64,000 bases of DNA from positions 64,564 through 128,563 of the forward strand of contig DEIN01000008.1 of assembly GCA_002352465.1 (NCBI GenBank). The letters are read 5' to 3'. The position numbers and the translations under genes are program-made. Positions 808-48,717 of this stretch are shown one piece after another. This DNA comes from Patescibacteria group bacterium UBA2773 (GTDB lineage Bacteria > Patescibacteriota > Minisyncoccia > Moranbacterales > DUUL01). Position 1 is the first letter of the stretch; each line of letters starts with the position of its first letter. The notes beneath the pieces were generated by a model that was given only the letters and a program-made list of their open reading frames with translations, searched no databases and was not told the origin of the DNA.

Positions 808-1884
808 TTAAAGATATTTTTTCCCTCGGACTTCTAGCTCTTTGATAACTTTTTTGATATCTTGAACTTTAGCTTTAGAACAAACCAACAAAGCATCTTC
901 AGTATCAACTATTACAACGTCGTCCAAGCCAACAGTTGCAATCACTTTGCCTTCTTTCCCGTAAATAATAGAATTAGAGGTTGCGATGTTCAATCGCTCT
1001 CCTTGAACTAAATTTCTTTTTTCATCAGTTTTGGTCATTAAATTTTCATGTAAAGTGTCCCAGCCTCCAATATCTTTCCAATCAAAATCACCTTTTATAA
1101 TCAAAACGTTCTCTGGCGACATTTTTTCCATAATAGCGTAGTCAATTGAAATTTTTTCCATTTTGCCATAGATTTTATCAATCTCCACTTTGTCATTTTT
1201 TCTGATGGCCTCTTTAATTTTCATTAAATAAGCGTGCAGTTGGGGTGCATATTTCTTATAAGCTTCTAGAAATAATTTAGGTGTCCACATATAATAATTA
1301 GCGTGCCAAAGATAATGACCAGTCTCTAGGTATTTTTGAGCTGTTTTAAAATCTGGTTTTTCGGTATGACCTTCAAATTGATAAAATTCAACATCATCTT
1401 TTTCTAAGACTTTTTTGCCAACTTTGGTGTAGCCAAGAGCCGTATTAGGACTAGTTGGGTAGATAGAAATATCTAATAATTTTCCAGTTTCATTGATGAC
1501 TTCTTCGGCTTTCTTGATTGCTTTGACGAATTTATCAAGTTGTCCAATATAGTGATCAGAAGGGATAAAAGCGATTGGCTCATTTTCATCTTCCAAGGAA
1601 AGTTTTACTGCCGAATAGCCCATCGCTGGAGCAGTATCTCTTTTGTCTGGTTCAATTATGATATTTTTTTCTGGAAAATCTGGTAGAATTTCTTTCAACG
1701 GTTCAACTAGACTTTCAGTTGTTGCAATATAAATTTTATCAGCAGGCCAATCTTTAAATCTAGCAAGAGTTTCTTCTAGAATAGTTTTATCAGAAGTAAG
1801 TTTGCAAAATTGTTTGGGTTTATTCTTTCTGCTCATTGGCCATAATCTTGTTCCTCCTCCTCCGGCTAAAACTACTATTTTCAT
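808..1884 (-). CDS. manC: mannose-1-phosphate guanylyltransferase (GDP-mannose pyrophosphorylase, nucleotidyltransferase)
   Basis: N-terminal LAGGGGTRLWP nucleotide-binding signature; length 358 aa. Confidence 0.7.
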   Translation of the reverse strand: MKIVVLAGGGGTRLWPMSRKNKPKQFCKLTSDKTILEETLARFKDWPADKIYIATTESLVEPLKEILPDFPEKNIIIEPDKRDTAPAMGYSAVKLSLEDENEPIAFIPSDHYIGQLDKFVKAIKKAEEVINETGKLLDISIYPTSPNTALGYTKVGKKVLEKDDVEFYQFEGHTEKPDFKTAQKYLETGHYLWHANYYMWTPKLFLEAYKKYAPQLHAYLMKIKEAIRKNDKVEIDKIYGKMEKISIDYAIMEKMSPENVLIIKGDFDWKDIGGWDTLHENLMTKTDEKRNLVQGERLNIATSNSIIYGKEGKVIATVGLDDVVIVDTEDALLVCSKAKVQDIKKVIKELEVRGKKYL

Positions 1885-2059
1885 GATGTTAATTCTTAAA
1901 GTTAAAAATCTTAAAATGTGAATAATTATTTTTTTGAGTAAAGTTCGAGGTAAAATTGATAATTTTAGTGAGATGTACTGATATTGATACGACGAACTGG
2001 AATTATTAATTTCAATCTATCTACCAGCAAACAGGCAAAGAAATTTATTAAAAATATAA

Positions 2060-2488
2060 TCATTCTCTTTCGTCCATGGCTTTATTGGCCATTGCATCAG
2101 CTTCCTTGTTTTTTTCTCTGGGAATATGAAAAAACTCAACATTTTTAAAATTAAGCATTAAATTCCAAATTTCAAGAAACATTTGTTGGATATTTTCGTT
2201 GCTGAGTTTGTATTGATGGTTTAACTGTTTGACCATTAACTCAGAATCAGCATAACATTTCAAATTTGCATTTTTTGCCTTTGCTTTTCCAATTAATTGT
2301 TTGATTTTTTTAAGCGCCAAAATTAAAGCTCGATATTCAGCTTCGTTATTGGTAATCTTATCACCTAAAAATTGGCTATATTTTTTAGTTTCATTTTTAA
2401 ATTTTACTACTGCTCCTGCACCTGCTATGCCTGGGTTGCCTCTTGATCCACCATCGGTGAAAACGTTTATGATATAATCTTCTATCAT
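2060..2488 (-). CDS. rnhA: ribonuclease HI
   Basis: DGGSRGNPG motif, NNEAEYRAL and ADSELMV catalytic-residue motifs; 142 aa. Confidence 0.75.
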   Translation of the reverse strand: MIEDYIINVFTDGGSRGNPGIAGAGAVVKFKNETKKYSQFLGDKITNNEAEYRALILALKKIKQLIGKAKAKNANLKCYADSELMVKQLNHQYKLSNENIQQMFLEIWNLMLNFKNVEFFHIPREKNKEADAMANKAMDERE

Positions 2489-2901
2489 TGTTCTTTGATT
2501 ATTGTTTTAAATCCACAAATAGTTTCTGGAATTCTATTCTTTTTATTGATATCTTTTTCGAAAATAATTTCAATTTCAGGAATTTTTTGATTATTGTTGA
2601 GAATTAGTCTAGCTTTAATAAAACCAGTTAACTTTTCAATTGATTTTAAATGGTCTTTTAGTGCATTATTCGCTTTTTCTTGAATTATTTTATTGTTGTC
2701 GCTTTTAGTGTACCGGTTGGAATAGAAACATTTTTGTTTAATTTTGCCTTTTTCCAAAGCGACTGCAAAATCATTATCAACTGCCCAAATAACAGTTAAT
2801 AATAAAATTAAAAACAAGAAAAGTGCTCTGGCTCTAGTATTTACATTTTTTTTAGCAGTTTTTTTTAATTTAAATTCCTTTTCAGGCTCGAAAAATTGCA
2901 T
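2485..2901 (-). CDS. hypothetical membrane-anchored protein
   Basis: ORF track; single TM segment; overlaps rnhA start by 4 nt (operon-like). Confidence 0.4.
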   Translation of the reverse strand: MQFFEPEKEFKLKKTAKKNVNTRARALFLFLILLLTVIWAVDNDFAVALEKGKIKQKCFYSNRYTKSDNNKIIQEKANNALKDHLKSIEKLTGFIKARLILNNNQKIPEIEIIFEKDINKKNRIPETICGFKTIIKEQ

Positions 2902-2909
2902 TATTTTTT

Positions 2910-3863
2910 CTATGAAATTAATTTATTAAATAAATTACCAAACTCTTCTTCTGAATAATAATTTAAAATAAATTTTCCACCTTTCTGCCCTTTTTTTATG
3001 CTGACTTTTGTCCCAAGTGCTTGACTGATTTTATCTTCAAATTCCAATATTTCCGGAGTTTGATTTAAACTATTTTTTTCAACTGAATTTGGATTATTAA
3101 TTTTCTTTACTCTTTTTTCTGTTTCTCGAACGCTAAGTTTGGAATTAATAATCTGATTAACCATCGTTTCCCTTTGATTTCGGTCTTCAAGGCTCAACAA
3201 AACTCGTCCGTGACCTTCACTAATTTCACCCGTTCTGATTTTTCGTTTTATATTAGAAGATAAATCCAAAAGTCTTAAAGTGTTAGCGATGGTTGATCTG
3301 TTTTTCCCTACTTGTTGAGCAATTTCTACTTGAGTATAATTAAAATTATCAGCCAATCTTTGGTAAGCTTTGGCTTCTTCAATAGCATTTAAATCATGTC
3401 TTTGGATATTTTCAATCAAAGCCCATTCTAATTTTTCTTTGTCACTGATTTTTTTAACGATTGCTGGAACTGTGCTCAAACCATTTTTTTGAGAAGCTTT
3501 GAAGCGTCTTTCTCCTGCCACTAAATCAAAACCACCAACAGAATTTTTTGTCACCACTAATGGTTGAATAATTCCATGTTTACGAATAGAAGTAGCTAAT
3601 TCTTCTAATTTATTTTCATCAAAATATTGTCGAGGTTGGAAAGGATTGGCTTTTATTTGACCAACTTCAATTTCTAAAATTGAATTTTTCGAAGATTCAT
3701 CTTTTCCATCTCTAATTAAATCTTTGCTTACTATTTCACTGTCCAAATCGCTAGATGCAAAGTTGGTTTTTTTGGTTTTTTTATTAAGAGCTGGATTATT
3801 ATTTGATTTTCTTTGAGGAATTAATGAAGATAGCCCTTTCCCCAAACCTCCTTCTCTAGACAT
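2910..3863 (-). CDS. parB: chromosome partitioning protein ParB/Spo0J
   Basis: N-terminal GLGKGLSSLIP, ParB box QPRQYFDENKLEELATSIRKHGIIQPLVV, HTH region. Confidence 0.9.
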   Translation of the reverse strand: MSREGGLGKGLSSLIPQRKSNNNPALNKKTKKTNFASSDLDSEIVSKDLIRDGKDESSKNSILEIEVGQIKANPFQPRQYFDENKLEELATSIRKHGIIQPLVVTKNSVGGFDLVAGERRFKASQKNGLSTVPAIVKKISDKEKLEWALIENIQRHDLNAIEEAKAYQRLADNFNYTQVEIAQQVGKNRSTIANTLRLLDLSSNIKRKIRTGEISEGHGRVLLSLEDRNQRETMVNQIINSKLSVRETEKRVKKINNPNSVEKNSLNQTPEILEFEDKISQALGTKVSIKKGQKGGKFILNYYSEEEFGNLFNKLIS

Positions 3864-11452: not shown

Positions 11453-12634
11453 CTATAGCCAATTATTCCAAATTGCAATCGATAGTAAAATTAGGAGAAT
11501 TCCGGCCACTAAGCGCATATATTTTTTTGACTTCTCTCTCCATTCTTCAACTTTTTCAACTTTTTTCCAAACGAAAATAGTTCCAAATACAATTATCAAA
11601 AGAGGCAAAACAAAAAATATATTATACAAAATTAGATAGCCAAAGGCAAAAACTTCCTTAGTGCTTAAAATCGAAACATAAGCCAAGGGAATTCCAGAAG
11701 TGCAAGGTAGTTCAACCAAACTAGAAAGTAAGGCTAGAATTATTGCGCTTAGCACAGTTCCCTTTTTAGTTAATTTTTCCAACAGAGGTTTTGTTTTTTT
11801 AGAAATTTCAAAAGAAAACCATCTTCCATAGAAAAAATAATCTTTAATCATTACTAGCCCTACAAATAAAGCGAATATGGAGATTATAATCCGAACTTCT
11901 CTAGCAATTTGTAAAACAGAAATAATTTTAATTAGACCAAACATAAAAAATAAATAAAACAAAAAAGTGGTAATAACAAAGGCAATTCCAGCTTTTAATG
12001 CTTTTCGACTGGAACCGATTCCCATTAGGTAGACCAACAAAAACATTAAAACTGAGAACATACAAGGATTAACTCCATCCGCCAACCCTAAAACTCCGCC
12101 CAAAAAACAAAGCGATCCATTTTCTTCCAAGCAAATTTCCTTGCCAAAAACCTGAATTGTTTTATGAGAGCTATGATCATCTTTTTCGGTTTGTTTAGAT
12201 TGAAATTTTTCGTTTGAAAATCCACCTACTATCGGTTCTAAACCAAGTTCTTCATCCAAAAATGAAGAACAAGTTTGAGTGGAACATTCTTCAATTCGCT
12301 TTTTAATTTTTCTTCCAATTCCTACCTCATTATTATATCCGACAATTACTTCTCCTCCAATCACAGTGGCTGGAACACCACCAGATAATCCAAATTTATC
12401 AACAACTTTTTCGAAAATAAGATAATTTTCTCTTTTATCTATTAGTAAATCCTTAATCTCTAAACTAGGATAATCGCTTCTAATTTCATTTAAAAACTTA
12501 ATCTCAGCTGCGCAATGAGGACAACCTGACATATGAAAAATATACAATCGAACCTTGTTTAATTCTAATGCTTTAACTTGGGCAGTAAAAAAAATACTAC
12601 TAAAAATTAATATCAAAAAAAATATTTTTTTCAT
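11453..12634 (-). CDS. thiol-disulfide oxidoreductase fusion: signal peptide + thioredoxin-like domain (CPHC) fused to CcdA/DsbD-type transmembrane electron-transfer domain
   Basis: CPHC redox motif at N-terminus; TM domain with NPC (LADGVNPCMF) and PCT (VELPCTSG) cysteines typical of CcdA/DsbD beta domain. Confidence 0.7.
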   Translation of the reverse strand: MKKIFFLILIFSSIFFTAQVKALELNKVRLYIFHMSGCPHCAAEIKFLNEIRSDYPSLEIKDLLIDKRENYLIFEKVVDKFGLSGGVPATVIGGEVIVGYNNEVGIGRKIKKRIEECSTQTCSSFLDEELGLEPIVGGFSNEKFQSKQTEKDDHSSHKTIQVFGKEICLEENGSLCFLGGVLGLADGVNPCMFSVLMFLLVYLMGIGSSRKALKAGIAFVITTFLFYLFFMFGLIKIISVLQIAREVRIIISIFALFVGLVMIKDYFFYGRWFSFEISKKTKPLLEKLTKKGTVLSAIILALLSSLVELPCTSGIPLAYVSILSTKEVFAFGYLILYNIFFVLPLLIIVFGTIFVWKKVEKVEEWREKSKKYMRLVAGILLILLSIAIWNNWL

Positions 12635-20327: not shown

Positions 20328-20935
20328 TTTTTCTCCTTCTCCTCCTCAACTTTGCCGGTTATTCAATTGGCTTTAGTTTGGTGCGGATAAATTCACGCAT
20401 TAATCCAAAACTTTGAAGTTGATTTAGAAATTTAAAATTAAAATTTAATTACCATTTAAAGTTTTCTAGATTCCCGCCCGCTTCGCCTAAGTTCCAGCAA
20501 AGCGAGCCTCTGCGAGAATGACAAATAAAGCTAAAACCTTAAAAGGTAATTAAATTAAATTTTTGGGGAAAAATTTCTTTATTCAATTTTCAAAGTTCTT
20601 TTGCTCTTTGCGTTTCCAATTTCTGATTTTAATGTTTAAACATAGCATATTTTGTCACTTTTGTCAATAGAATCGATGGAGTGGTTTTTAATAATGCTTC
20701 GAAAAACTTTGTTTTGAGATTTTATTCATGGTTTCCCGAGGTTCGACCGCTGTCCGTATAGCGGTCGAACTTCGGGAAAGAGGATTTTCATAAATTAAAT
20801 CGCTTAATACTTTATACACAGTACTAACATAATATCAGATATTATATTATTGACTATCTTCAAATACTCTGGTAAACTCTCTTTAGTTGTTGAAACGCAA
20901 TCTTTATTTTATTGAATAATTTTTATTTAAATATA

Positions 20936-24323: not shown

Positions 24324-24559
24324 ACAAAATATTTTATGCTTTTTAATTAAGCTTGAATCGAAGATTGGAAATTGCAAATTAAAAAGGTTTTTATAATTTT
24401 AAATTTCGAATTTTAAATTTCGATTCAATGTTTTAATTTTCTAATTTCTAAACGACAAGCTTCGCTTGCAGTCATTTTAAAAATTAAAACATTAAAATGT
24501 TTTAAATTGAATCGAAATTTATAATGCCCCTTGGGTGTAAAATTGAAGAATATTTCTCA

Positions 24560-25956: not shown

Positions 25957-26406
25957 TTATCGCATTCGGCGGCTGCCTCGACTTCTGAATTTTTTGGCTA
26001 GTTTAACTCGGGCTGATTGTTTATCAAGTTGAGAAAGCATCATTGCAAATTGATTTTCATCCATTGATTTTCGTTCGGATTGTTTGGCTTCAACTGCTCG
26101 TTTTCGAGCTTTTTCAGCTCGCTCAAGGTTGATTTCTTCGGCTCTTTCCGCGGTGTCAGCCAAAACAGTTAATTGATTAGCATGCAATTCCAAAAAACCT
26201 CCCGAGACCACCATTTCGGTTATTTTTCCTTTTTCTTTGGTAATTTCTAAAACACCTGGTGCTAAAGTCGTAATCAACGGAATATGATCGGGCAAAATTG
26301 TAATTACCCCACTTTCAGTTGGAATAGTAATTTTATCAATCTCCTTTTCCGCCACTAATTTTTCTTGGGTGGCAATCTTCAATTTAATCTTCTTTTGAAT
26401 GCTCAT
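25957..26406 (-). CDS. atpC: F1 ATP synthase epsilon subunit
   Basis: N-terminal beta-sandwich ITIPTESGVITILPDHIPLITTL; 149 aa; separated from atpD by 1.2 kb. Confidence 0.85.
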   Translation of the reverse strand: MSIQKKIKLKIATQEKLVAEKEIDKITIPTESGVITILPDHIPLITTLAPGVLEITKEKGKITEMVVSGGFLELHANQLTVLADTAERAEEINLERAEKARKRAVEAKQSERKSMDENQFAMMLSQLDKQSARVKLAKKFRSRGSRRMR

Positions 26407-26831
26407 ATAAATATATAAATAATATTTTAAGTTTTTTATTTATCTGTGTTCTTCTATTAATTTTCAGATTAAATAAATTTTGAATTTTAAATTTTAAATT
26501 TTAATTCAATGATTTAATTTATTAATTTTTAAACAACAAGCTTTGCTTGTGTTTTTTAAGAATTAAATAATTCAAAATTGATTCAAAATTCAAAATTTAA
26601 AATTCAAAATTAATCCCTCAATCTCACAATCAAAACTTAATGGTTTAAGTTTTGAAGAATGGTATTGATAAATTTTAAAATTTAAACTTTCTGGATTCCC
26701 GCCTCCGCGGGAATAACAAGATTAAATGCAAAATGAAAATCATAAAATATTGACAATCTAATCAAAATGTACTATGGTATAGTTTGAATTAATGAACAGC
26801 ACTTTAATTTAAAATTTAAAAGGAGAACTTC

Positions 26832-27116
26832 ATGGACAAGGTTAAAAAAAATACTGTAATCGAAGAAAAAAAAGCGGATCAAATCAAGAGCTCAAGGAAA
26901 AGATTTAGGATAGGAGTTTTTCTTTTGATTATAGGTCTTGCCTCAATATTCATCGTTTTATTAGGTTTAGGTTTGCACCCGATAAAACCTGAAGAATTCA
27001 CAACATTATTTCAAATAACCTTGTATTTATCAGCTTATATCGCCTCTTTAATCGCTGCTTGTTTATGCGTCTATTTAGGAGTTATTATTATCTCGGAAGA
27101 GATAATAAAGAAATAA
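26832..27116 (+). CDS. small 2-TM membrane protein inserted between atpD and atpC on the opposite strand
   Basis: Own promoter TTGACA-17-TATGGTAT, strong SD AAAAGGAGAA, followed by 13-bp hairpin terminator at 27199-27250. Confidence 0.5.
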   Translation: MDKVKKNTVIEEKKADQIKSSRKRFRIGVFLLIIGLASIFIVLLGLGLHPIKPEEFTTLFQITLYLSAYIASLIAACLCVYLGVIIISEEIIKK

Positions 27117-27198
27117 TTGTTGAAAAGCCTGCAACCGAAACTTGGTTGCACGGCTTTTCTTTTTGTTAAATTTTGAATGTTCAAGATTTTTTTTCGTG

Positions 27199-27250
27199 GT
27201 TTCCCGAGGTTTGACCGCCGTTCCACTGCGGTCGGACCTCTGTTTTTCTG
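27199..27250 (+). terminator. hairpin terminator, member of TTTCCCGAGGTT(C/T)GACCGC repeat family
   Basis: GAGGUUUGACCGC/GCGGUCGGACCUC stem with G-U wobbles valid only on plus-strand RNA, followed by TGTTTTTCTG. Confidence 0.55.
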
Positions 27251-27591
27251 AGTGTTTTTGTTATTACAAATGTATGTACATGTATACTTACTTTTATAAA
27301 TATGATTAATTTTGCACCCCCCCAAGGGCATCTTAAATTTCAAATTTTGAATTTCAATTCAATTTTAAATTATCTATTTTTAATTTCTGGATTCCCGCCA
27401 TACACCGTCGCTAAAGCTATGGCACACACGGCGCGGGAATGACAACACAAACAGAACATCTTTAGAGATTTTATTATTCAGATGCAGTTCGAGGCGAAAT
27501 TAATAATTTCGACGAGATGTATTAAGTTGATACATCGAGTCGGAATTATTGATTTCAACAAAGAAATGCGCTGAATAAAAAATCTCAACGG

Positions 27592-29001
<1,410 letters not shown>

Positions 29002-29163
29002 TTATTTAGAGACTAGTGATCGCCGTCAAGGCGTTAAACAAAATTTTTAATTTTTGAATTTTATAAATAAATTCAAAACCTTAATTTTTAAACATTCTCG
29101 TCCGAAGCGTTTTGAATTTAAAAATTGAGATTTATTTAAAAATTATAAAATTAAAAATTATTT

Positions 29164-32863: not shown

Positions 32864-33029
32864 ATATATTATATCTCTAGTTAATTTGATTGATTACATT
32901 CCAGTATATAGAAGTTTCTTTTTTTGAGTGCAATTCGAGAAAAACCTGAGCAACGAGCAAGATGTATTAAATGAAACATCGAGCGAGTGGTAGAAGGTTC
33001 GACAAAGGAATGCACCAGAAATGGAAATT

Positions 33030-33533: not shown

Positions 33534-33750
33534 AACAATTTTTTTAAAAAAATTAATTTTGAATTTTAAATTTTAAATTTTAATTCAATTTAGAATGTTT
33601 TAATTTTTCAATTTTTAAACATTCTCTAATGGAACATTCTAAACTTGAAAATTAGGATTTATTCAAAATTTAAAATTATCAATTCTCTCTAAGCTCTACC
33701 TTTAGAAAAGATAAAGCCTAAGAAAATTCAAATAATTGCCTTACGACAAA

Positions 33751-33996
<246 letters not shown>

Positions 33997-34314
33997 TTAT
34001 TAATTAGTTATTAGTTAGAAAGTCTTTAAAGTTTGTAAAGTTGAAAGTTTTTTAGATTCAAGAACAACTTGCAATTAAAAAACTTTATGAACTTTATAAA
34101 CTTTATGAACCTTTCAACCAAATGACTTATCCTAGATTTCTATTTTTGAGTGCAGTCCGAGGAAAATCTTAAATCATAAATCTTTGGACTTCAGAAATTT
34201 AAAATTTAGTACAATTCAAGGAAAACTTGAGCAACGAGCGAGATGTATTAGATAATACATCGAGCGAGTGGCAGAAAATTTGACGAAGAAATGGGCTGAA
34301 TTTTAAATTCCTGA

Positions 34315-35534: not shown

Positions 35535-35676
35535 ATTTTTTTAAATTTTATAATTTTATAATTTTATAAATAATTTTTAATCTCTAATTTTCAAACAACA
35601 AGCTTCGCTTGTATTTTTTAAAAAAATTAAAATTGAGCTCCTGGATTCCCGCCTCCCCGGGAATGACAATGTAAAA

Positions 35677-36273: not shown

Positions 36274-36429
36274 ACGAAATTTTATAAATAAAATTTAATT
36301 TTCAATTCGCAATTTTCAATTTACATTGAATTTTCAATGATTTAATTTTCAAACTCAAACAAGCGAAGCTTGTCATTGAAAATTTTTAAATTGAAAATTG
36401 ATTAAAAATTGTAAATTGAAAATTGAAAA

Positions 36430-38328
36430 TTACTTCTTAAGTACTTCCAAAAACGCTTGTTGCGGAATTTCTACTCTTCCTGATTGCTTGGCTCGACTTT
36501 TCCCCTTCTTTTGTTTTTCTAAGAGTTTTCGCTTTCGGGTAATATCGCCTCCATACATTCCAGCCGTGACGTCTTTTCTGAAAGGCCTGATGTTTTCTCT
36601 GGCCAAAATTTTTCCACCAATCGCGGCTTGAATCTTGATTAAAAAATTCTGTCGAGGAATAACGTCTTTTAGTTTTTTGACAATTTTGTTTCCAATCGCC
36701 AAAGTATTATCTCGGTGAATAATTTGAGAGAAAGAATCCACTTTTTCATCAGCTACATAGATGTCTAATTTTACCAAATCAGCTGGTTGATAGTCAACAA
36801 ATTCATAGCTGAACGAAGCATAACCTGAAGTGACAGATTTTAAATTGTCATTAAAATTAACAATAATATCGGCCAAGGACGAATTGAAAGACAAAATTAA
36901 TCTTTCAGCATCCAAATATTCAGTGGCAAGATAGTCCGACCGAGTACTTCGCTGAATCAATTCCATTACATCTCCCAAAAACTTAGAAGGCATTAAAACA
37001 TCCAACTTCACTCTAGGCTCTTTTATTTCTTCTATTTGACTAGGATCAGGCAAATCAGCGGCTGAATAAATTTTGAATGTTTCACCAGTGGTTTTCTCAA
37101 TTTCATACACCACGCTAGGAGTGGTTATGACTGGTTCAAAATTAAATTCTCTTGAAAGTCGTTCTTTAATAATTTCTAAGTGCAAAACTCCCAAAAAACC
37201 GATTCGAAACCCTCGCCCCAAGGCTGGAGAACTTTCTCCCTCGAAAACTAAGGCGGCATCATTCAGTTTTAATTTATCCAAAGCGTCTCGCATTTGGTTA
37301 TAGTCTTCTCCTTCAGTTGGATAGAAACTGGCATACATCATGGGTTCAACTTCTTTGTAGCCGGATAATGGCTCCACTTTGTTTTTTTCAAAATCTGCTT
37401 TCGAAGTGACAGTATCTCCTACTCGACATTCATCAACACTTTTAAGTCCTGTTGCAATATAGCCGATGTCTCCGGCTTTTAAAAATTCAGTCGCTTGCAA
37501 ATCGGGAGAGAATTTTCCGACTTCGATGGAGTGGGCTTTTTTGCTACTTCCGATTAAATAGATATCGTCTTCTCTTTTGGTTTTTCCTTCAAAAATTCGA
37601 ACAAATGCCAAAACTCCTTTATATGAATCATATTTAGAATCAAAAATCAAAGCTTTCAAAGGCGCATTTTCTTTTTCTGCTGGAGCGGGAATTCGTTCGA
37701 TTACCGCTTGCATCAAAGCGTCAACACCTTCTCCAGTTTTTCCGCTGACCGCTAGAATTTCTTCTTTTTTACAACCCAATAAATTTATTATTTCAATTTT
37801 AGTTTTTTCTGGATCGGCGTTGGGTAAATCAATTTTATTTACGACTGGAATAATTTCTAAATCTTGTTCAATGGCTTGATAAAGATTGGCTAAAGTTTGA
37901 GCTTGAACACCTTGAGTGCAATCCACTAACAAAATTGCACCCTCAACGGCTTTTAGAGATCTTGAAACTTCGTAGCCGAAGTCCACGTGACCAGGAGTGT
38001 CGATGAGATTCAAGGTGAACTCATCTTTGATTTTGAATTTTGAATTTCGAATGTTCAAATCATTAGTGATTTGAGATTTTGAATTTTGGTTTTGACTTGG
38101 ATTAATTTGAAATAATTTGGATTTTTGATTTTTATAAACATACTTCATCGTCACAGGTTGGAGTTTGATAGTAATTCCTCGTTCTCGTTCCAAATCCATA
38201 GTATCTAAAAGTTGTTCTTTCATATCTCGACCTTCAATCGTTTTGGTCATTTCCAACATTCTATCGGCCAAGGTTGATTTTCCGTGATCGATGTGAGCGA
38301 TTATACAAAAATTTCTGGTTTTGTTCAT
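36430..38328 (-). CDS. lepA: elongation factor 4 (LepA) with ~30-aa low-complexity insertion in the G domain
   Basis: AHIDHGKST, DTPGHVDF, NKID G-motifs; LepA C-terminal domain; insertion YVYKNQKSKLFQINPSQNQNSKSQITNDLNIRNSKFKIK between switch regions. Confidence 0.95.
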   Translation of the reverse strand: MNKTRNFCIIAHIDHGKSTLADRMLEMTKTIEGRDMKEQLLDTMDLERERGITIKLQPVTMKYVYKNQKSKLFQINPSQNQNSKSQITNDLNIRNSKFKIKDEFTLNLIDTPGHVDFGYEVSRSLKAVEGAILLVDCTQGVQAQTLANLYQAIEQDLEIIPVVNKIDLPNADPEKTKIEIINLLGCKKEEILAVSGKTGEGVDALMQAVIERIPAPAEKENAPLKALIFDSKYDSYKGVLAFVRIFEGKTKREDDIYLIGSSKKAHSIEVGKFSPDLQATEFLKAGDIGYIATGLKSVDECRVGDTVTSKADFEKNKVEPLSGYKEVEPMMYASFYPTEGEDYNQMRDALDKLKLNDAALVFEGESSPALGRGFRIGFLGVLHLEIIKERLSREFNFEPVITTPSVVYEIEKTTGETFKIYSAADLPDPSQIEEIKEPRVKLDVLMPSKFLGDVMELIQRSTRSDYLATEYLDAERLILSFNSSLADIIVNFNDNLKSVTSGYASFSYEFVDYQPADLVKLDIYVADEKVDSFSQIIHRDNTLAIGNKIVKKLKDVIPRQNFLIKIQAAIGGKILARENIRPFRKDVTAGMYGGDITRKRKLLEKQKKGKSRAKQSGRVEIPQQAFLEVLKK

Positions 38329-38538
38329 AAAATTCCTTTCAGTTTTTAACTAAGCTTATTATTTTCTTAATCACTTTACCACAACAAAGGGATTTTTCAA
38401 TGGAAAATTTATTGATTTTGGATTAGTTTTTTATAATTGATATGATAAATTTTCAATTTGTTTTGGAAATTAGTGTATGTTATTATTGAGATGTTTAATG
38501 GAATATTTTAAAAAATTTTATTCAAAGGAGGGTTTACC

Positions 38539-38691
38539 ATGTCCGAAAAGACTGAAGAAGCTAAACGACCTAGAAAGTTAAAGAAAAAACGTTGGAATGA
38601 TAAGCTTTTGTTATTAAATGCAAGTTCTGATCATTCCTCGAAAAACATCGAGGCTTTGAAAAGACGAGATGGAGTTTTAATCAGTAGATAA
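38539..38691 (+). CDS. small basic protein (50 aa) with consensus SD AAAGGAGGG
   Basis: Hand-translated MSEKTEEAKRPRKLKKKRWNDKLLLLNASSDHSSKNIEALKRRDGVLISR; strong RBS 7 nt upstream. Confidence 0.35.
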   Translation: MSEKTEEAKRPRKLKKKRWNDKLLLLNASSDHSSKNIEALKRRDGVLISR

Positions 38692-38709
38692 TGCAAAAAG
38701 GAGGTTGAG

Positions 38710-38880
38710 ATGTCTGAAAACAGAATAGAAATCAATAATCCTTTAAGTATCCAGAAAAAGGAAAAAGCATGGAAGGGGAAAACTTTTAACGAAAGATGCA
38801 AAGATGCAAAAAAAATGGTTGACTCACTTAAGAAAAAACCTATTTCAGAAAGGATATGGAGAATGAAATTTGACATTTAA
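38710..38880 (+). CDS. small protein (56 aa) with consensus SD AAAAGGAGG
   Basis: Hand-translated MSENRIEINNPLSIQKKEKAWKGKTFNERCKDAKKMVDSLKKKPISERIWRMKFDI; followed by terminator 38903-38938. Confidence 0.35.
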   Translation: MSENRIEINNPLSIQKKEKAWKGKTFNERCKDAKKMVDSLKKKPISERIWRMKFDI

Positions 38881-38902
38881 AAAAACAGTTAACCATTCCA
38901 AC

Positions 38903-38938
38903 CGGGGAAACGAACCAGTTTCCCCGCTTGATTAATTT
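38903..38938 (+). terminator. Rho-independent terminator (CGGGGAAAC/GTTTCCCCG)
   Basis: 9-bp GC-rich stem followed by CTTGATTAATTT. Confidence 0.55.
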
Positions 38939-39008
38939 AGTAATGTTTATAAAATATAAATTTAAATTAATTCAAATTTTAATATTATATTTTTATTTAA
39001 AATAGATT

Positions 39009-39257
39009 ATGAAAAACAAAATACTACCTCCAACTTATTTTTGGATTATATTATTAGCGTCGATTATTGTTAATTATATTTTTGAAATTAAAACAATAAT
39101 AAAATTTCCTTATAATTTAATTGGCTTTATTCCAATTATTTTTGGTATTGTTATCAATATAATCACCGATAATATTTTTAAAACTGAAAAAACTACGGTT
39201 AAACCAAACATCCTGAAGAAAAAAATCTTGAAAAAATATTTGGCAAAAAATATTTAG
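39009..39257 (+). CDS. small membrane protein
   Basis: ORF track; 2 TM. Confidence 0.35.
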   Translation: MKNKILPPTYFWIILLASIIVNYIFEIKTIIKFPYNLIGFIPIIFGIVINIITDNIFKTEKTTVKPNILKKKILKKYLAKNI

Positions 39258-39327
39258 ATTATAAAAAATCAAAGAAGATGGTTTTAATTTTTGAAAAGAT
39301 ATAAATATAAAATTTAAAAATATAATT

Positions 39328-39498
39328 ATGATCAATATTATAAATTTATTAAAACAAAAAAAGTCTTTTATCTTTTATTTTTTTGGATCTTTTGTTGTTA
39401 TTTTTTTATTTGGCCAATATTTTTTTAATAGCTTGATTCTTCTTTTGATGGTTTGTCTATTTTTTTTTATGTTTTTCACAATTAGTGCCTTTTTTTAA
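39328..39498 (+). CDS. small membrane protein (56 aa), unannotated
   Basis: Hand-translated MINIINLLKQKKSFIFYFFGSFVVIFLFGQYFFNSLILLLMVCLFFFMFFTISAFF. Confidence 0.3.
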   Translation: MINIINLLKQKKSFIFYFFGSFVVIFLFGQYFFNSLILLLMVCLFFFMFFTISAFF

Positions 39499-39507
39499 AA
39501 ATCTAAT

Positions 39508-40023
39508 TTGACTTTATTGTTTGTATTTTTATTAACAATTATTCCGTTACAATTGCCAAGTGCTTATATTACGAAGAAATACTTATTTTCATATCTTTCA
39601 AATCCATTTTATTATTATCTAGTAAATTGGTTACTAATAATTTCATCAGGAATTTTAATTACGATTTTGTATTTTTTAATAAAAAGAACGATAAAATATA
39701 AAAAAATATTTGCTTCATTGTTTTTCGTTTTAATTATCATTATTAATTTATTTGGTACTTATTTTTATATTGTATTAGCAGGAACATTTTACAGCCCGAA
39801 TTATGACGGATGTGGATCAAAATTCAACAAAGCTTTTCTAGAGGGAGCTGAAAATAATGACAATTATTTTTGCTCAAATCTAGAAATATTGATAAATAAA
39901 ACTGATTACCATTCAACCTGGGGTGGTGGTAAATATTGTCGAACTCCTAATAATATTATTATTGAAAAACACAACAAAGAAAAAAATTGTTTCAAAGCAT
40001 TTTCTATGTTTGAACAAAATTAA
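39508..40023 (+). CDS. membrane protein with Cys-rich extracytoplasmic C-terminal domain
   Basis: ORF track; 3 TM then CGSKF...FCSNLE...YCRTP...NCFKAF cysteines. Confidence 0.4.
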   Translation: MTLLFVFLLTIIPLQLPSAYITKKYLFSYLSNPFYYYLVNWLLIISSGILITILYFLIKRTIKYKKIFASLFFVLIIIINLFGTYFYIVLAGTFYSPNYDGCGSKFNKAFLEGAENNDNYFCSNLEILINKTDYHSTWGGGKYCRTPNNIIIEKHNKEKNCFKAFSMFEQN

Positions 40024-40062
40024 TTTATTTATTTAAAACAAAAAACATACTTTAAAAAACAT

Positions 40063-40099
40063 AAAAACGGGTCGGTGTGTTTGAACCGAACCCGTTTTT
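40063..40099. terminator. bidirectional terminator (ACGGGTCGG...CCGAACCCGT flanked by A-run and T-run)
   Basis: Hairpin between convergent 39508..40023(+) and 40105..40470(-). Confidence 0.6.
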
Positions 40100-40104
40100 A
40101 GAAT

Positions 40105-40470
40105 TTACTTGAAAAAAGAATGAGAAATTCGTAGTGCAAAGCCGAATCCTCCAACGATAAAAGTTAAAATTCCGGCGACTGAAGATATTTTAGAGAAAAT
40201 GTCAGTTGTAAGAGTACAAGTTTTTTCTCCACAAAAATATTTATCTTCTTTTCGATAAATTTTAATCATAAATACACCCATAACCATACCAACGGTATAA
40301 ATAAAAAATTCATCAACGAGAAAATCAAAAAGTTTAATACTACCAAAAACATCAAAAGTAAATTTTTGCCAAAAATTTAGCAACATTATTCCAGCAGAAC
40401 GAATACCCAAGCCAAATACTAAAAGGCCTAAAAATGAAACTGTTAGTTTAAAACGATCGTTCATCGTCAT
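40105..40470 (-). CDS. hypothetical 4-TM membrane protein
   Basis: ORF track. Confidence 0.4.
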   Translation of the reverse strand: MTMNDRFKLTVSFLGLLVFGLGIRSAGIMLLNFWQKFTFDVFGSIKLFDFLVDEFFIYTVGMVMGVFMIKIYRKEDKYFCGEKTCTLTTDIFSKISSVAGILTFIVGGFGFALRISHSFFK

Positions 40471-40657
40471 TGAACCTACTCCTTTCTTTTATTATTTTCA
40501 AATAGCTCAAAATCTAATTATAGCTTTTTTAAATAATTTGTCTAGATTTTAGAACATTAAAAATCTATTGAAAAATTATATCGTTTGTTCTAAATTTAAG
40601 TTGTATTCAAAAAGTATTCTCCTAAAATATAATCATATTCCAAAAAAGGAGCTTAAT

Positions 40658-40858
40658 ATGTCTAATTTTGAAAAAATTTCCGAAATATTAGCCGATAATA
40701 TGAGAAATTTGGAAAATAGTATGGGATTTGCCTGCCATCAATCAACAATAAAAATTATTCGTGTTGTTGACGAATGGGGACGAATAACTTTTGATAAAAT
40801 TACATTAATCAAAAATATTCCAATTTGGAAAGGAAAAGTAAATGATTTCAAAAATTGA
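40658..40858 (+). CDS. small hypothetical protein (66 aa; start adjusted to MSNFEK with AAAAGGAG SD)
   Basis: SD 8 nt upstream of ATG; hairpin GGGACAGC/GCTGTCCC downstream. Confidence 0.35.
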   Translation: MSNFEKISEILADNMRNLENSMGFACHQSTIKIIRVVDEWGRITFDKITLIKNIPIWKGKVNDFKN

Positions 40859-40978
40859 ATCAAATTTTTCAGGGACAGCTATAAATTTCGCTGTCCCTTA
40901 AATTCTGCTTAATTTTGACCTAAAAATTTTCTTAAATTATCGTTAAGACAATTAAATAATTATTAATATTAAAACAAA

Positions 40979-41224
40979 ATGAACAAAAATAAATATTGGT
41001 TTAAACCGAAAAAATATGGTTATGACTTCACTCCGATTTCTTGGGAAAGTTAGATTTTAACTTTAATTTTTGTGACTTTAATTTTTATTTCAGCTTATGC
41101 TAATAATGTTTTTTAGCCTTTCATTAAATTAAAAAACGGTTGTCGATTTTTGTTGGATATAATTATTTTGACTTCTCTGTTTTCTTTGATTTCAAAAAAC
41201 AGATTAAGAAACGGCTTAGCTTGA
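40979..41224 (+). pseudogene. small membrane protein gene (MNKNKYWFKPKKYGY...) interrupted by two in-frame TAG codons
   Basis: Hand translation: MNKNKYWFKPKKYGYDFTPISWES*ILTLIFVTLIFISAYANNVF*PFIKLKNGCRFLLDIIILTSLFSLISKNRLRNGLA*; no frameshift. Confidence 0.4.
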
Positions 41225-41383
41225 AGCTGGGAAAACAAAAAATAAGATTTAATTTTTCTACCATTCTTCAGTAAATAGTAGAAAATAATTTTATTTTATT
41301 TGTCGAAAAAGTGAACAAAAAATATTTTAAAAGCGGACTCATTTTTTACAAGCCCGCTTTTCTTTTGATTTTTTTATCAATTT

Positions 41384-41695
41384 TTATCCAAATTGATTCC
41401 CGATTTCGATGAAATCAACCTCGAGTGCACCAGTTGGAATCTCTAGTCGAGGTTTTTCTCCTTCGGCTATCCAATAACAATCGGCGCTCAATCCACCATT
41501 AACCATAAAAACTGTTTCCAGTAAAATACCGTCTTTGTTATAACGAGTTTTTTCAAAACCCTGCATAATTATAACCGAACGATATACGCCACCATCTTTC
41601 GAAAAAAGCATAAATGGTACTTTACTTTTCAATTCATCTTTATCAAATTGTCCCATTAAAAATGATTGAACTGGATTTATTCCCTTTGTTTCCAT
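41384..41695 (-). CDS. hypothetical small protein, paralog of adjacent gene
   Basis: Shares LLE(T/I)VF...G..AD.YW(I/L).EG..PR core with 41728..42045; strong SD AAAGGAG. Confidence 0.5.
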   Translation of the reverse strand: METKGINPVQSFLMGQFDKDELKSKVPFMLFSKDGGVYRSVIIMQGFEKTRYNKDGILLETVFMVNGGLSADCYWIAEGEKPRLEIPTGALEVDFIEIGNQFG

Positions 41696-41727
41696 AATCT
41701 TACTCCTTTGATTTAAACAATCTTTTT

Positions 41728-42045
41728 TTAACTTAATATATTTTCTTTAATTTTAATCCTATCAATCCATAATGGTTTATAATAAGAACGAAATTTAATT
41801 CGAGGCAATTGACCTTCTGTCAACCAATAAAAATCAGCATCATAAACACCATGAGTTGAAAAAACAATCTCCAGAAGTTCTCCATTTGGTCCTTGCTCAA
41901 ATTTTACCGAATCACTGTTAACGATAACTGAATTATATAAAGCGTGACCAGAAACGATGCTTAAATATGTTGAATAACCAAAATTATTCTTTAGAAAAAT
42001 CTGAGTTAAAACTGCTTGAACTTCATTTGATTTTTTCATAGTCAA
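41728..42045 (-). CDS. hypothetical small protein, tandem paralog
   Basis: Strong SD AAAGGGAGGAA; similarity to 41384..41695. Confidence 0.5.
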   Translation of the reverse strand: MTMKKSNEVQAVLTQIFLKNNFGYSTYLSIVSGHALYNSVIVNSDSVKFEQGPNGELLEIVFSTHGVYDADFYWLTEGQLPRIKFRSYYKPLWIDRIKIKENILS

Positions 42046-42307
42046 TTCCTCCCTTTAAAATTGAAAAAATAGTTATTTTTGTCAAAGTTCTTTAACTTGA
42101 TAAAAAATTCTAGAATTTAAAAATGTTTTTGTCAACTAACTAAATAATTTTTAATTATTCATTCTTTCTGTTATTCTTAATGTAATAATAAAATTTTTAG
42201 ACTTGATTCAATTTTTGAATTAGATTTTATTGAGATCAAAAAAAATAAAATTCTCTATTTTTATCTAATTCTTTGCTTAATAATATTTTTTAATTTTAAA
42301 AAATAAT

Positions 42308-42835
42308 ATGAAAAAAATCATTGTTAGTTCAAAAAATCCAGTTAAATTGGAAGCTTCCAGAAAAGGTTTTGAAAAAATGTTTCCTGAAGATAAATTTGAA
42401 TTTGTCAGCCTAGACTCATCTTCTGAAGTTCCCGACTAACCAATAGGAAATGAATAAACTTTTCAAGGCGCTCAAAATAGAATCAAAAACGCTCAAAGAG
42501 AAATTCCAAACGCTGATTTTTATATTGGAATTGAGGGTGGAATAAATTTAAAAGAAAAAGACACGGAAATTTTTGCTTGGATAATAATTGAATCAAAAAA
42601 TCAAATTGGAAAATCCAGAACTGCGACTTTTTATCTTCCAGAAAAAATGAATAAATTTTTAAAAAAAGGCGAGGAAGTTGGAATTGTGACGGATTTAGTT
42701 TTCAAAACTAATAATTCGAAGCAGAAAGGTGGCGCAGTCGGAATTTTAACCGATGGCATTGTTAATCGAACTAAATGTTATGAAGATTCAGTTGTTTTAG
42801 CCCTGATTCCGTTTAAAAATTCAGATTTATATTAA
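42308..42835 (+). pseudogene. inosine/xanthosine triphosphatase (YjjX/Maf-Ham1-like) with two in-frame TAA codons
   Basis: Hand translation aligns along its length with E. coli YjjX (SSEVPD*PIGNE*TFQGAQNR vs [33 protein letters not shown]); stops replace conserved Q and E codons. Confidence 0.6.
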
Positions 42836-42920
42836 TAGTACCATTTCCAATCATAAACCAAAATATCCAATTCAAATTTACGTAATTAATTACGTAAACG
42901 ATTACGTAATCCAAAAAAAA

Positions 42921-48247: not shown

Positions 48248-48396
48248 TTTATTTTTTTGTTATAACGCTAGATGTAAAAAAGTTTTTATTTTTGAGTATA
48301 ATTTGAGGAAAATTTAAGTACCGAGCGAGGCATATTGAATGATACGGTGAGCAAATAACGAAAAATTTGACGAAAAAGTACACCGAAAATGAAGAC

Positions 48397-48717
48397 TTAT
48401 TTAGTCAATTTTTTGCCGTAATCAAGCCACTCAATAGTTCCCATCTCTAGATTAAAAATATTTTTGTATCCCAATTGACTTAATTGCTCTGCGATAAAAT
48501 GGCTTCGGCTTCCACTGCGACAATAAAGAGCGACTTTATCAGTTTTTTTAATTTTTGATTTTTCTAATTCGTCCGAAAAATGAGTTGAAGGAAAGAGCTT
48601 AGCACCTTTGATAAATCCTTGTTGAAACTCAAAAAGCTCCCGAACATCAATGAGATGAACTTTTTTATCTTTTATTAGTTCTTCAAAATCATCAGAAGAT
48701 AATTGCTTAACCGACAT
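48397..48717 (-). CDS. rhodanese-domain sulfurtransferase
   Basis: Active-site loop YCRSGSRS; 106 aa. Confidence 0.8.
   Translation of the reverse strand: MSVKQLSSDDFEELIKDKKVHLIDVRELFEFQQGFIKGAKLFPSTHFSDELEKSKIKKTDKVALYCRSGSRSHFIAEQLSQLGYKNIFNLEMGTIEWLDYGKKLTK

Follow-up and report, generated by a model that had tools for sequence, protein, structure and literature searches.

A candidate antisense small-membrane-protein cassette between atpD and atpC of a Patescibacteria genome, and the Neisseria-type hairpins that surround it

The stretch of DNA analyzed here (hereafter, the window) comprises 64,000 nucleotides of contig DEIN01000008.1 from Patescibacteria group bacterium UBA2773 (assembly GCA_002352465.1, positions 64,564 to 128,563). 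It is AT-rich, with about 30% GC, and carries a complete F-type ATP synthase operon on its minus strand. The gap between atpD and atpC holds a small open reading frame (sORF) on the opposite strand, together with several hairpin-forming repeats. Our analysis indicates that this spacer is probably a mosaic of independent elements situated around an old slot for an antisense gene. The sORF forms part of a cassette whose relatives in other genomes share its ends but carry different interiors. The two hairpins that flank it resemble the Neisseria Transformation Sequence (NTS), and an initial annotation of the sequence had interpreted them as the borders of a mobile unit similar to a MITE (a miniature transposable element with inverted repeats). 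However, hairpins and cassette are independent of each other: four lineages carry the cassette without a hairpin, one carries a hairpin without the cassette, and three carry neither.

The 1185-bp gap between atpD and atpC is exceptional among Patescibacteria loci. For the 76 representative loci of this group that were recovered with AtpC, the median gap is 32 bp; it measures 100 bp or less in 59 of them and exceeds 300 bp in only four. The initial annotation was correct in placing a gap of about 1.2 kb between the two genes, and its view that a normally tight operon has been split agrees with these numbers.

The cassette spans positions 26618 to 27167, less an insertion at 26674-26753, and faces the end of atpD, with atpC behind it (Table 1); its transcription would converge on the former and diverge from the latter. 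Its layout is likely that of a self-contained transcription unit, including a sigma-70-type promoter, a leader of about 50 nucleotides with a strong Shine-Dalgarno (SD) sequence, an ORF for a small membrane protein, and an intrinsic terminator. The initial annotation had already recognized the near-consensus promoter, the strong SD, and the 94-amino-acid frame for a 2-TM protein, all of which are present. The two hydrophobic segments of the frame span residues 23-52 and 59-93. The GGAG of the SD lies 6 nucleotides ahead of the ATG. Promoter-like matches of this quality are common in such AT-rich DNA (15 found versus 11.5 expected). SD-like motifs within 20 nucleotides of the start accompany just 7 of the 57 long ORFs of the window and are absent from the other 50; the atp genes lack them, and strong ones occur on cassette sORFs and on a few small genes at 40-42 kb. 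Judging from these signals, the sORF is presumably transcribed from its own promoter and made as a membrane protein.

The hairpin at 27199-27250, which had been taken for the sORF terminator, is not the closest one. A proximal terminator of canonical intrinsic type, which the initial annotation missed, begins 7 nucleotides past the sORF stop codon (predicted DNA fold of -15.9 kcal/mol, z -5.8). Because this structure is without a good T-run in the atp sense, read-through atp mRNA that is antisense to the sORF is plausible. At the other end of the cassette, the 56 nucleotides upstream of the promoter (fold z -4.7) are 86-87% identical to the corresponding DNA of two relatives, L005 and L003, are conserved in 10 cassettes, and directly abut the -35 hexamer wherever the cassette is uninterrupted. 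The T.G wobble pairs of this hairpin are found exclusively on the atp-sense strand in L005, L205, L212, and L213, which suggests that it acts in atp-sense RNA or in single-stranded DNA.

Table 1. Features of the window discussed in the text, ordered by position.
Feature	Position	Strand	Basis or remark
NTS-like hairpin copy C, with a stem mismatch and 33 nt inserted in the loop	20465-20526	-	Nested in a 115-nt extended hairpin, ~20444-20558
Second hairpin family, full copy, 22-bp stem	20732-20789	+	Fold z -7.7
atpC (ATP synthase epsilon subunit)	25957-26406	-	Pfam PF02823, E 3e-24
AT-rich repeat copy: A-tract run (AATTTTAAATTTT...) and hairpin ACAAGCTTTGCTTGT, then T6	26462-26570		Terminator-like site at 26536-26550
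Conserved 5' end of cassette: hairpin TCAAAACTTAA-loop-TTAAGTTTTGA and motif TTTGATTGTGAGATTGA, read in atp sense	26618-26673	-	Comparison with relatives
80-bp insertion: 74-bp element (26674-26747) with copy A (core 26691-26720) and second TATTGA copy (26748-26753)	26674-26753	-	Comparison with 9 uninterrupted cassettes
Predicted sORF promoter, TTGACA (26750-26755), 17 nt, TATGGT (26773-26778)	26750-26778	+	10/12 consensus positions
5' leader, type II (GAACAGCACTTTAATTTA), SD GGAG at 26822-26825	26779-26831	+	Alignment of leaders
sORF, 94-aa orphan protein, two predicted membrane helices	26832-27116	+	ORF call and hydrophobicity
Predicted intrinsic terminator of sORF, AAAAGCCTGCAACC-GAAAC-TTGGTTGCACGGCTTTTCTTTTT; hairpin also on atp-sense strand	27123-27167	+	Terminator scan, fold
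Second hairpin family (TGGTTTCCCGAGGTTYGACCGC...), degenerate copy	27199-27250	+	Repeat search, fold z -3.9
NTS-like hairpin copy B, 33-nt loop insertion	27387-27446	-	Repeat search, fold
Structured hairpin element, ~110 nt, 3' of atpD, gene sense; 3' end overlaps atpD stop	27455-27600	-	82-90% identity to L005, L002, L202
atpD (ATP synthase beta subunit)	27592-28971	-	Pfam ATP-synt_ab on identical product in L001
NTS-like hairpin copy D	35641-35672	-	5 nt past GDSL lipase gene stop

Evidence for a cassette with fixed ends comes from syntenic loci of species with 74-85% AtpC identity (Moranbacteria-like), in which the gene order runs from lepA through the lipase gene, atpIBEFHAGDC, and a glycosyltransferase gene as far as rnpA and rpmH (Table 2). 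The modular cassette of the initial annotation, either occupied or empty, survives this comparison in one respect: a promoter-sORF-terminator unit is indeed present between atpD and atpC in some close relatives and absent in others.

Table 2. The atpD-atpC junction in close relatives of the window.
Locus	atpD-atpC gap	Cassette	NTS-like hairpin
L202/L002, L209	163-206 bp	None	None
L210	32 bp	None	None
L207/L208	361 bp	None	One
L003/L211	~700 bp	75-aa antisense sORF	None
L005/L204	~780 bp	Frameshifted sORF, L003 type	None
L205/L206	751 bp	Unrelated 97-aa sORF	None
L213	695 bp	51-aa sORF	None
L212	~500 bp	ORF deleted; just the terminator and 5' motif left	None

Read in the cassette sense, the common frame begins with TCAATCYCACAATCAAARCT-loop-AGYTTTGAAKAATGGTA, followed at once by TTGACA, 17 nucleotides, and TATNNT; then come a leader of about 50 nucleotides, AAAGGAG, 5-9 nucleotides, ATG, a hydrophobic ORF of 36-97 amino acids, and an intrinsic terminator. 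The 5' hairpin and the -35 hexamer are common to ten cassette instances, and the same -35 hexamer, spacing, and TATNNT form of the -10 hexamer recur in all related cassettes. A strong SD precedes every intact cassette ORF at the distance given. The terminator is homologous among the atpD-atpC instances of the window, L003, L005 (87% identity to the window), L212, and L213, and thus the slot is old.

The interiors behave differently. The window and L005 have three blocks of 87-90% identity, which correspond to the promoter-proximal hairpin, the terminator, and the structured element that lies 3' of atpD, whereas nothing aligns between the -10 hexamer and the stop codon. BLASTP detected no similarity among the cassette ORFs. 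The leaders fall into two types, and that of the window matches the leaders of atpG-atpD cassettes in L213 (GD1) and L212 but differs from those of the other atpD-atpC cassettes. For the 94-amino-acid sORF, a word-index search of 5.8 billion clusters returned no homologue except itself, and the query was also the sole match in an exhaustive phmmer search of 1.84 billion representatives. No Pfam, PHROG, NCBIfam, or PADLOC family scored above its cut-off, and the sub-threshold matches were typical of hydrophobic sequence. The 97-amino-acid sORF of L205 was likewise an orphan on homology search.

Cassette copies also occur in tandem, frameshifted, and deleted-remnant forms. The atpG-atpD gap of L213 (positions 913-3000) extends over 2.1 kb and contains three tandem antisense cassettes with ORFs of 67 amino acids, 69 amino acids plus a second ORF of 57, and 56 amino acids. 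Between them lie copies of TTTGATTGTGGGATTGA, a variant of the NTS (CTGGATTCCTGATCGGGGTCAGGAATGACAG), and further palindromes, AAAATTTCGAAGAAATTTT among them. The motif TTTGATTGTGRGATTGA lies between the tandem cassettes and is also found alone after atpG in L213 and L210. The family, which is specific to this clade, was found exclusively in atpG-atpD and atpD-atpC gaps. We propose that the regulatory ends have been conserved, and that the interior, meaning leader and ORF, has probably been replaced, tandem-duplicated, frameshifted, or deleted many times. Such turnover might proceed by homologous recombination between the conserved ends.

Two other origins were considered and rejected. The units are not integron gene cassettes, because each has its own promoter and terminator and the repeated motif is not attC-like; in addition, no integrase is present among the called genes of L202, L205, L212, and L213. 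A phage source was examined in IMG/VR, where the cassette 5'-end pattern gave no matches. A 17-nucleotide motif gave 55, which we attribute to chance because most look coding (F-D-C-E/G-I-D) and none stands in a cassette context.

Conserved ends around unrelated ORFs could also be the mark of a locus whose ORF is incidental, with the promoter, upstream hairpin, and terminator regulating atpD or atpC expression, either through an antisense RNA that codes for nothing or as a divergent promoter. A 94-codon open frame at 30% GC argues otherwise, since its chance is about 4e-4 per start by our own estimate from base composition, as does the fact that an SD, 5-9 nucleotides, ATG, and a hydrophobic ORF follow one another in every intact cassette. 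The frameshifted ORF in L005/L204, the ends that stand alone in L212, the cassette-free copies of TTTGATTGTGRGATTGA found upstream of atpD in L210 and L213, and the better pairing of the upstream hairpin on the atp-sense strand would all suit a non-coding role. However, sORFs at a similar location in Falkowbacteria (see below) are conserved as proteins, and we regard an incidental ORF as highly improbable.

The flanking hairpin reads TGGATTCCCGCC-loop-GCGGGAATGACAA and is the reverse complement of the Neisseria NTS/dRS3 repeat; the minus strand accordingly reads TTGTCATTCCCGCG-loop-CGGGAATCCAG. The NTS, CGTCATTCCCGCGMAVGCGGGAATCYRG, is an extended form of the dRS3 repeat and is widespread in the form of 'Ssn-related motifs' (SRM). 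Ssn GIY-YIG nucleases of Neisseria and Wolbachia cleave the NTS on single-stranded DNA, and loop extensions are reported not to block this cleavage. NTS-gene-NTS arrangements are known, and NTS-ssnA-NTS has been likened to an insertion sequence (PMC11893778). The same 21-mer has been handled in Neisseria as a REPIN, a hairpin-forming doublet of repetitive extragenic palindromic (REP) sequences (bioRxiv 10.1101/2021.07.10.451892).

Four copies of the hairpin (A to D) are present in the window, where the initial annotation had located them. All are intergenic, all lie on the plus strand when read as TGGATTCCCGCC-loop-GCGGGAATGACAA, and all fold as single-strand hairpins. Their abundance exceeds that in shuffled sequence, both for GGATTCCCGC with at most one mismatch (7 matches versus 1.15 expected) and for GCGGGAATRACAA (10 versus 2.3). 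Copies A and D each differ from the reverse complement of the NTS consensus at three positions, a match for which shuffles give an expectation of 0, and copies B and C keep both arms around loop inserts. Two relatives, L005 and L205, carry TTGTCATTCCCGCGGAGGCGGGAATCCAG. The core also occurs in at least 120 public metagenome contigs of 32-67% GC from many environments, and thus the motif is not specific to this organism. The strict SRM pattern, HGTCWYN(0-2)YYVSBRHN(0-5)WNVSBRGN(0-2)RNCYNB, fits 88 of the 120 metagenome loci listed, and ssnA-like small GIY-YIG genes adjoin the hairpin in three unrelated contigs (L090, L095, and L139). By its sequence, the hairpin is a member of the NTS type. An enzyme resembling Ssn, or a REP-associated tyrosine transposase (RAYT), may act on the copies in the window.

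The window copies are single and share one orientation, and no Y1 gene is present in the window, a pattern that does not fit REPIN-RAYT systems. A REPIN-like doublet without counterpart in the window occurs in L005 at 11812-11895 (L204 11827-11910), where two perfect NTS-like hairpins are inverted and 33 bp apart. A link to IS200 or RAYT elements was also rejected: L205 (11319-11744) and L213 (14109-14519) each have an IS200-like Y1_Tnp gene less than 10 kb from the atp operon, but the hairpins at the ends of these genes show no relation to the NTS or to the ends of the cassette. Within the gap, all Rfam matches stay below the gathering score. A weak one, to FtrB over the copy A element (29 of 66 bits), is taken to reflect a shared hairpin only, because a Francisella small RNA paper holds the string CGCGGGAATGAC.

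The positions of the hairpins speak to how they arrived. Copy A sits within the cassette rather than beside it. The sequence GAAGAATGGTATTGACAA is contiguous in nine other cassettes and broken only in the window, where the 80-bp insertion separates GAAGAATGGTA from TTGACA. Compared with these uninterrupted cassettes, the 74-bp element with copy A (fold z -3.4) is flanked by a 6-bp TATTGA duplication that regenerates the -35 hexamer, and we propose that copy A arrived in this element. Around the sORF unit as a whole, comparison with the empty site in L202 shows no duplication. Since copy A breaks into the 5' end, part of the conserved DNA of the cassette (26618-26673) falls beyond the bracket that had been supposed. 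Copy B comes right after the structured element located 3' of atpD, in the same place as the uninterrupted hairpin of L207/L208, and would be older than the split from L207, a sister genome that lacks the cassette. Copy C has a predicted fold of -23.8 kcal/mol (z -5.8). A hairpin equivalent to copy D occupies the lipase-atpI junction, without cargo, in L005 (1167-1186), L204 (1194-1213), and L205 (1307-1328, the variant ATTCCTGCG...CAGGAAT), and thus copy D is inherited and not recently mobile. Its sharing among three related species also means that NTS-like repeats can persist at one site through speciation. Taken together, the flanking hairpins are best explained as slightly degenerate NTS/SRM (dRS3) copies that would have entered a permissive spacer separately from the cassette.

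Loop inserts of 23-35 nucleotides placed exactly in NTS-like loops are seen in window copies B and C, in L205 (16564-16606), and in several metagenome loci. The two in the window are both 33 nucleotides long and mutually unrelated, and one insert type, GGAGTTTAYCC..., recurs in unrelated contigs. This suggests that the NTS-like loop is itself a target for nested insertions.

These positions bear directly on the proposal that a MITE-like or composite mobile unit, carrying promoter, sORF, and terminator, is bounded by the two NTS-like hairpins, with single hairpins representing empty sites. The arrangement looks suggestive, in that two copies in direct orientation flank the sORF, a precedent exists in the NTS-gene-NTS arrangements of the Ssn paper (PMC11893778), and an NTS hairpin or variant lies beside cassettes in L213 and in the atpG-atpD gap of L205. 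L207 also carries a single hairpin at the same site, without an sORF and with likeness to both window copies. However, seven cassettes lack a hairpin on both sides (L003, L005, L205 atpD-atpC, L212 atpG-atpD, L213 GD3, and L213 atpD-atpC) or at least on the promoter side. In addition to the cassette DNA that copy A interrupts outside the bracket, hairpin copies stand alone at other junctions. The ends of the atpD-atpC cassette are orthologous in lineages down to 74% AtpC identity, and the slot therefore predates the hairpins of the window. Thus, we consider a composite mobile unit very unlikely.

The occupied-or-empty idea therefore fails where it makes the hairpins the boundaries or vehicle of the unit, since there are cassettes without a hairpin, a hairpin without a cassette, and a copy A that lies inside the 5' end. 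Nor do the repeats appear to be linked to cargo, as had been proposed, because they represent a pan-bacterial REP-like motif and the lipase-atpI copy is conserved without cargo. The initial annotation had held that the same sORF in relatives without flanking repeats, or repeats that are uniformly distributed REP elements unrelated to cargo, would speak against it. This is largely what was found, because relatives show cassettes without repeats and the repeats are REP-like. The comparison of orthologous junctions that it recommended did reveal sORFs at the slot without flanking repeats, but the ORF differs between relatives and is not the same sORF.

Several observations weigh against the mosaic we favor. 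Neither the window nor its close relatives contain a match to the strict SRM pattern, one position of which (H) is violated by the GAG loop; further breaks are GTT for GTC in copy A and a stem mismatch in copy D. All four window copies deviate from the NTS consensus. No ssnA (cd10448 GIY-YIG) or Y1 transposase gene occurs in the 64-kb window or in Patescibacteria loci L002-L081 and L202-L210. The 6-bp TATTGA duplication is short and AT-rich. The lack of homology among cassette ORFs could reflect extreme divergence instead of replacement. Finally, L207 is the closest relative by AtpD, AtpG, and AtpA, and its one hairpin resembles copy B at the left flank and copy A at the right. This is the pattern expected if recombination between direct hairpin copies deleted a cassette. 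Because the L207 hairpin mixes the flanks of both copies, hairpins may sometimes take part in cassette loss.

The cassettes share several traits with type I toxin-antitoxin loci (ldr/rdl, ibs/sib, hok/sok), which have small hydrophobic ORFs, strong translation signals, conserved leaders, and a history of tandem multiplication and decay, and which are poorly detected by homology. All of these structural traits recur here, in company with strong promoters. If the cassettes were modules of this kind, the hydrophobic peptide would damage the membrane and be silenced by read-through atp mRNA or by a short antisense RNA, and the tandem, frameshifted, and deleted copies and the orphan ORFs would reflect selfish addiction dynamics. 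In favor of this, the cassette runs antisense to the atp transcript over its whole length, and read-through is plausible. On the other hand, most of the ORFs have 51-97 amino acids and two helices and are longer than typical type I toxins, and searches of Pfam, PHROG, NCBIfam, and PADLOC showed no similarity to a toxin family. Neither a promoter for an antitoxin nor an antitoxin RNA was found, with promoter-like matches at background level, and confinement to gaps in the atp operon is atypical of such modules. We therefore judge a type I system to be rather unlikely.

An antisense promoter-sORF-terminator unit adjoining atpD is not restricted to the Moranbacteria-like clade, but is also seen in eight more distant lineages of the candidate phyla radiation (CPR). 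In the distant Paceibacterota locus L046, the atpD-atpC gap holds an antisense TTGACA-17-TATAAT promoter, a 67-amino-acid ORF with two helices, and a terminator. In seven others (L022, L024, L036, L037, L039, L042, and L053), the unit occupies the atpG-atpD gap and includes a promoter match and an intrinsic terminator. Three Falkowbacteria sORFs are mutually homologous, and hhalign found no similarity between them and the window sORF. Antisense hydrophobic ORFs of at least 50 amino acids occur in about 13 of about 35 enlarged atpG-atpD or atpD-atpC gaps versus about 9 of about 187 other enlarged same-strand gaps. The denominators are our own tally, the control is a rough one, and the comparison is crude because the gap is partly enlarged by the ORF inside it. 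Several of the roughly nine control ORFs resemble atpE shadows.

A different kind of insertion occupies the atpD-atpC junction of a distant Parcubacteria locus (L015 9514-9939). There, a sense-strand ORF of 141 amino acids is flanked by runs of GGTTAAGAG-type repeats and resembles, by eye, a putative four-helix-bundle protein of the type found with 23S rRNA intervening sequences.

Other repeats populate the window. The second hairpin family, whose recurrence at 20732-20789 had been reported correctly, gives three matches versus 0 expected, and a half copy is found in L207 at 1192-1210. An AT-rich intergenic family made of phased A-tracts (AATTTTAAATTTT...), a hairpin (AACAAGCTTCGCTTGT), and a T-run sits between many genes of the atp region (24381-24489, 26462-26570, 29040-29094, 33548-33620, 35540-35632, and 36290-36398), and a related copy is present in the L003 gap.

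The element of about 110 nucleotides that follows atpD recurs immediately 3' of atpF (32915-33020), atpB (34195-34305), and the gene at 48397-48717 (48283-48390), with all four copies on the minus strand and in gene sense. Every close relative retains it 3' of atpD, and L207 and L205 carry it in duplicate. Compensatory changes occur in 17 of 26 predicted pairs, with G-U pairs read in the gene sense. No Rfam family matches the element at its gathering score (best, 20.8 of 49 bits).

A separate region at 38300-42900 has only 25-28% GC and is crowded with small hypothetical ORFs, many of them for membrane proteins. These include an SD-bearing apparent paralogue pair on the minus strand (41384-41695 and 41728-42045) and a 121-amino-acid membrane ORF (40105-40470). 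This region may be an island of accessory genes.

The function of the window sORF can be addressed only tentatively. The product might be a small membrane protein that is toxin-like or linked to ATP synthase, with convergent and antisense transcription coupling its expression to that of the atp genes, which we rate as possible but short of likely. A broader picture, on which we place somewhat less weight still, is that CPR atp operons repeatedly host an independently transcribed, fast-evolving antisense gene for a small membrane protein beside atpD. In the Moranbacteria clade, this gene would have become an exchangeable cassette in which a fixed frame of promoter, hairpin, and terminator holds swappable interiors of leader plus ORF, sometimes in tandem. 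DNA uptake followed by recombination would swap the interiors, a process that NTS-type hairpins and an Ssn-like nuclease encoded elsewhere in the genome would modulate as in Neisseria, and the peptide and its antisense relation to atp mRNA might couple membrane energetics to a toxin-like or regulatory function.

The NTS identity removes the apparent mystery of the paired repeats and extends a recently characterized nuclease-target motif to an AT-rich genome of the candidate phyla. A cassette that is both real and expressed would bear on the expression of an ATP synthase operon whose genes are normally co-transcribed but here are divided by convergent transcription, on the origin and turnover of orphan small proteins in reduced genomes, and on whether CPR bacteria that depend on DNA uptake shape recombination by Neisseria-like repeats. 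In the literature searched, neither small antisense genes within atp operons of CPR bacteria nor CPR repeats of the REP type are described. The antisense small-membrane-protein cassette family, with its conserved ends, unrelated orphan ORFs, and location in the gaps flanking atpD, appears to be undescribed.

Among known systems, the hairpins share with NTS/dRS3/SRM repeats the core GTCATTCCCGCG-loop-CGGGAATCCAG with its 8-bp GC-rich stem, the asymmetric conserved flanks that orient the repeat, and the form of an inverted repeat of 20-50 nucleotides that folds as a hairpin outside genes. Both are extragenic, are at times found on both sides of membrane-protein genes, and tolerate loop extensions. 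The differences are that the host is an AT-rich, Moranbacteria-like CPR genome, that the density is low (4 copies in 64 kb) and each copy slightly degenerate with a GAG loop that fails the strict pattern, and that the available DNA has no ssnA or RAYT gene and no inverted doublets among the window copies. The hairpins are therefore of a known kind (NTS/dRS3/SRM, REP-like), and what is new is the host lineage with its slightly divergent loop. As in MITEs and in mosaics of REP sequences or bacterial interspersed mosaic elements (BIMEs), short hairpin repeats pile up in a spacer, and copy A has inverted arms and a 6-bp target duplication. Unlike in those systems, no terminal inverted repeats beyond the core are shared between the copies, no parent insertion sequence is evident, and the gene between the hairpins is not mobilized by them.

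A close parallel for the slot itself is offered by the minimal mobile elements and neisserial intergenic mosaic elements (NIMEs) of Neisseria. There, a fixed slot with conserved borders holds alternative, unrelated genes amid dRS3-type hairpins, and exchange occurs by homologous recombination after DNA uptake. The atpD-atpC slot likewise has conserved borders, holds unrelated genes by lineage, and lies amid dRS3-type hairpins and short repeats. However, its borders are the promoter hairpin and terminator of the cassette instead of housekeeping genes, its cargo is one tiny membrane ORF, and it is located inside the atp operon on the opposite strand. By analogy, the slot might work like a minimal mobile element of Neisseria that has some traits of a type I toxin, although it differs from the former in its borders and cargo and from the latter in ORF length and in its confinement to the atp operon, and falls under the definition of neither.

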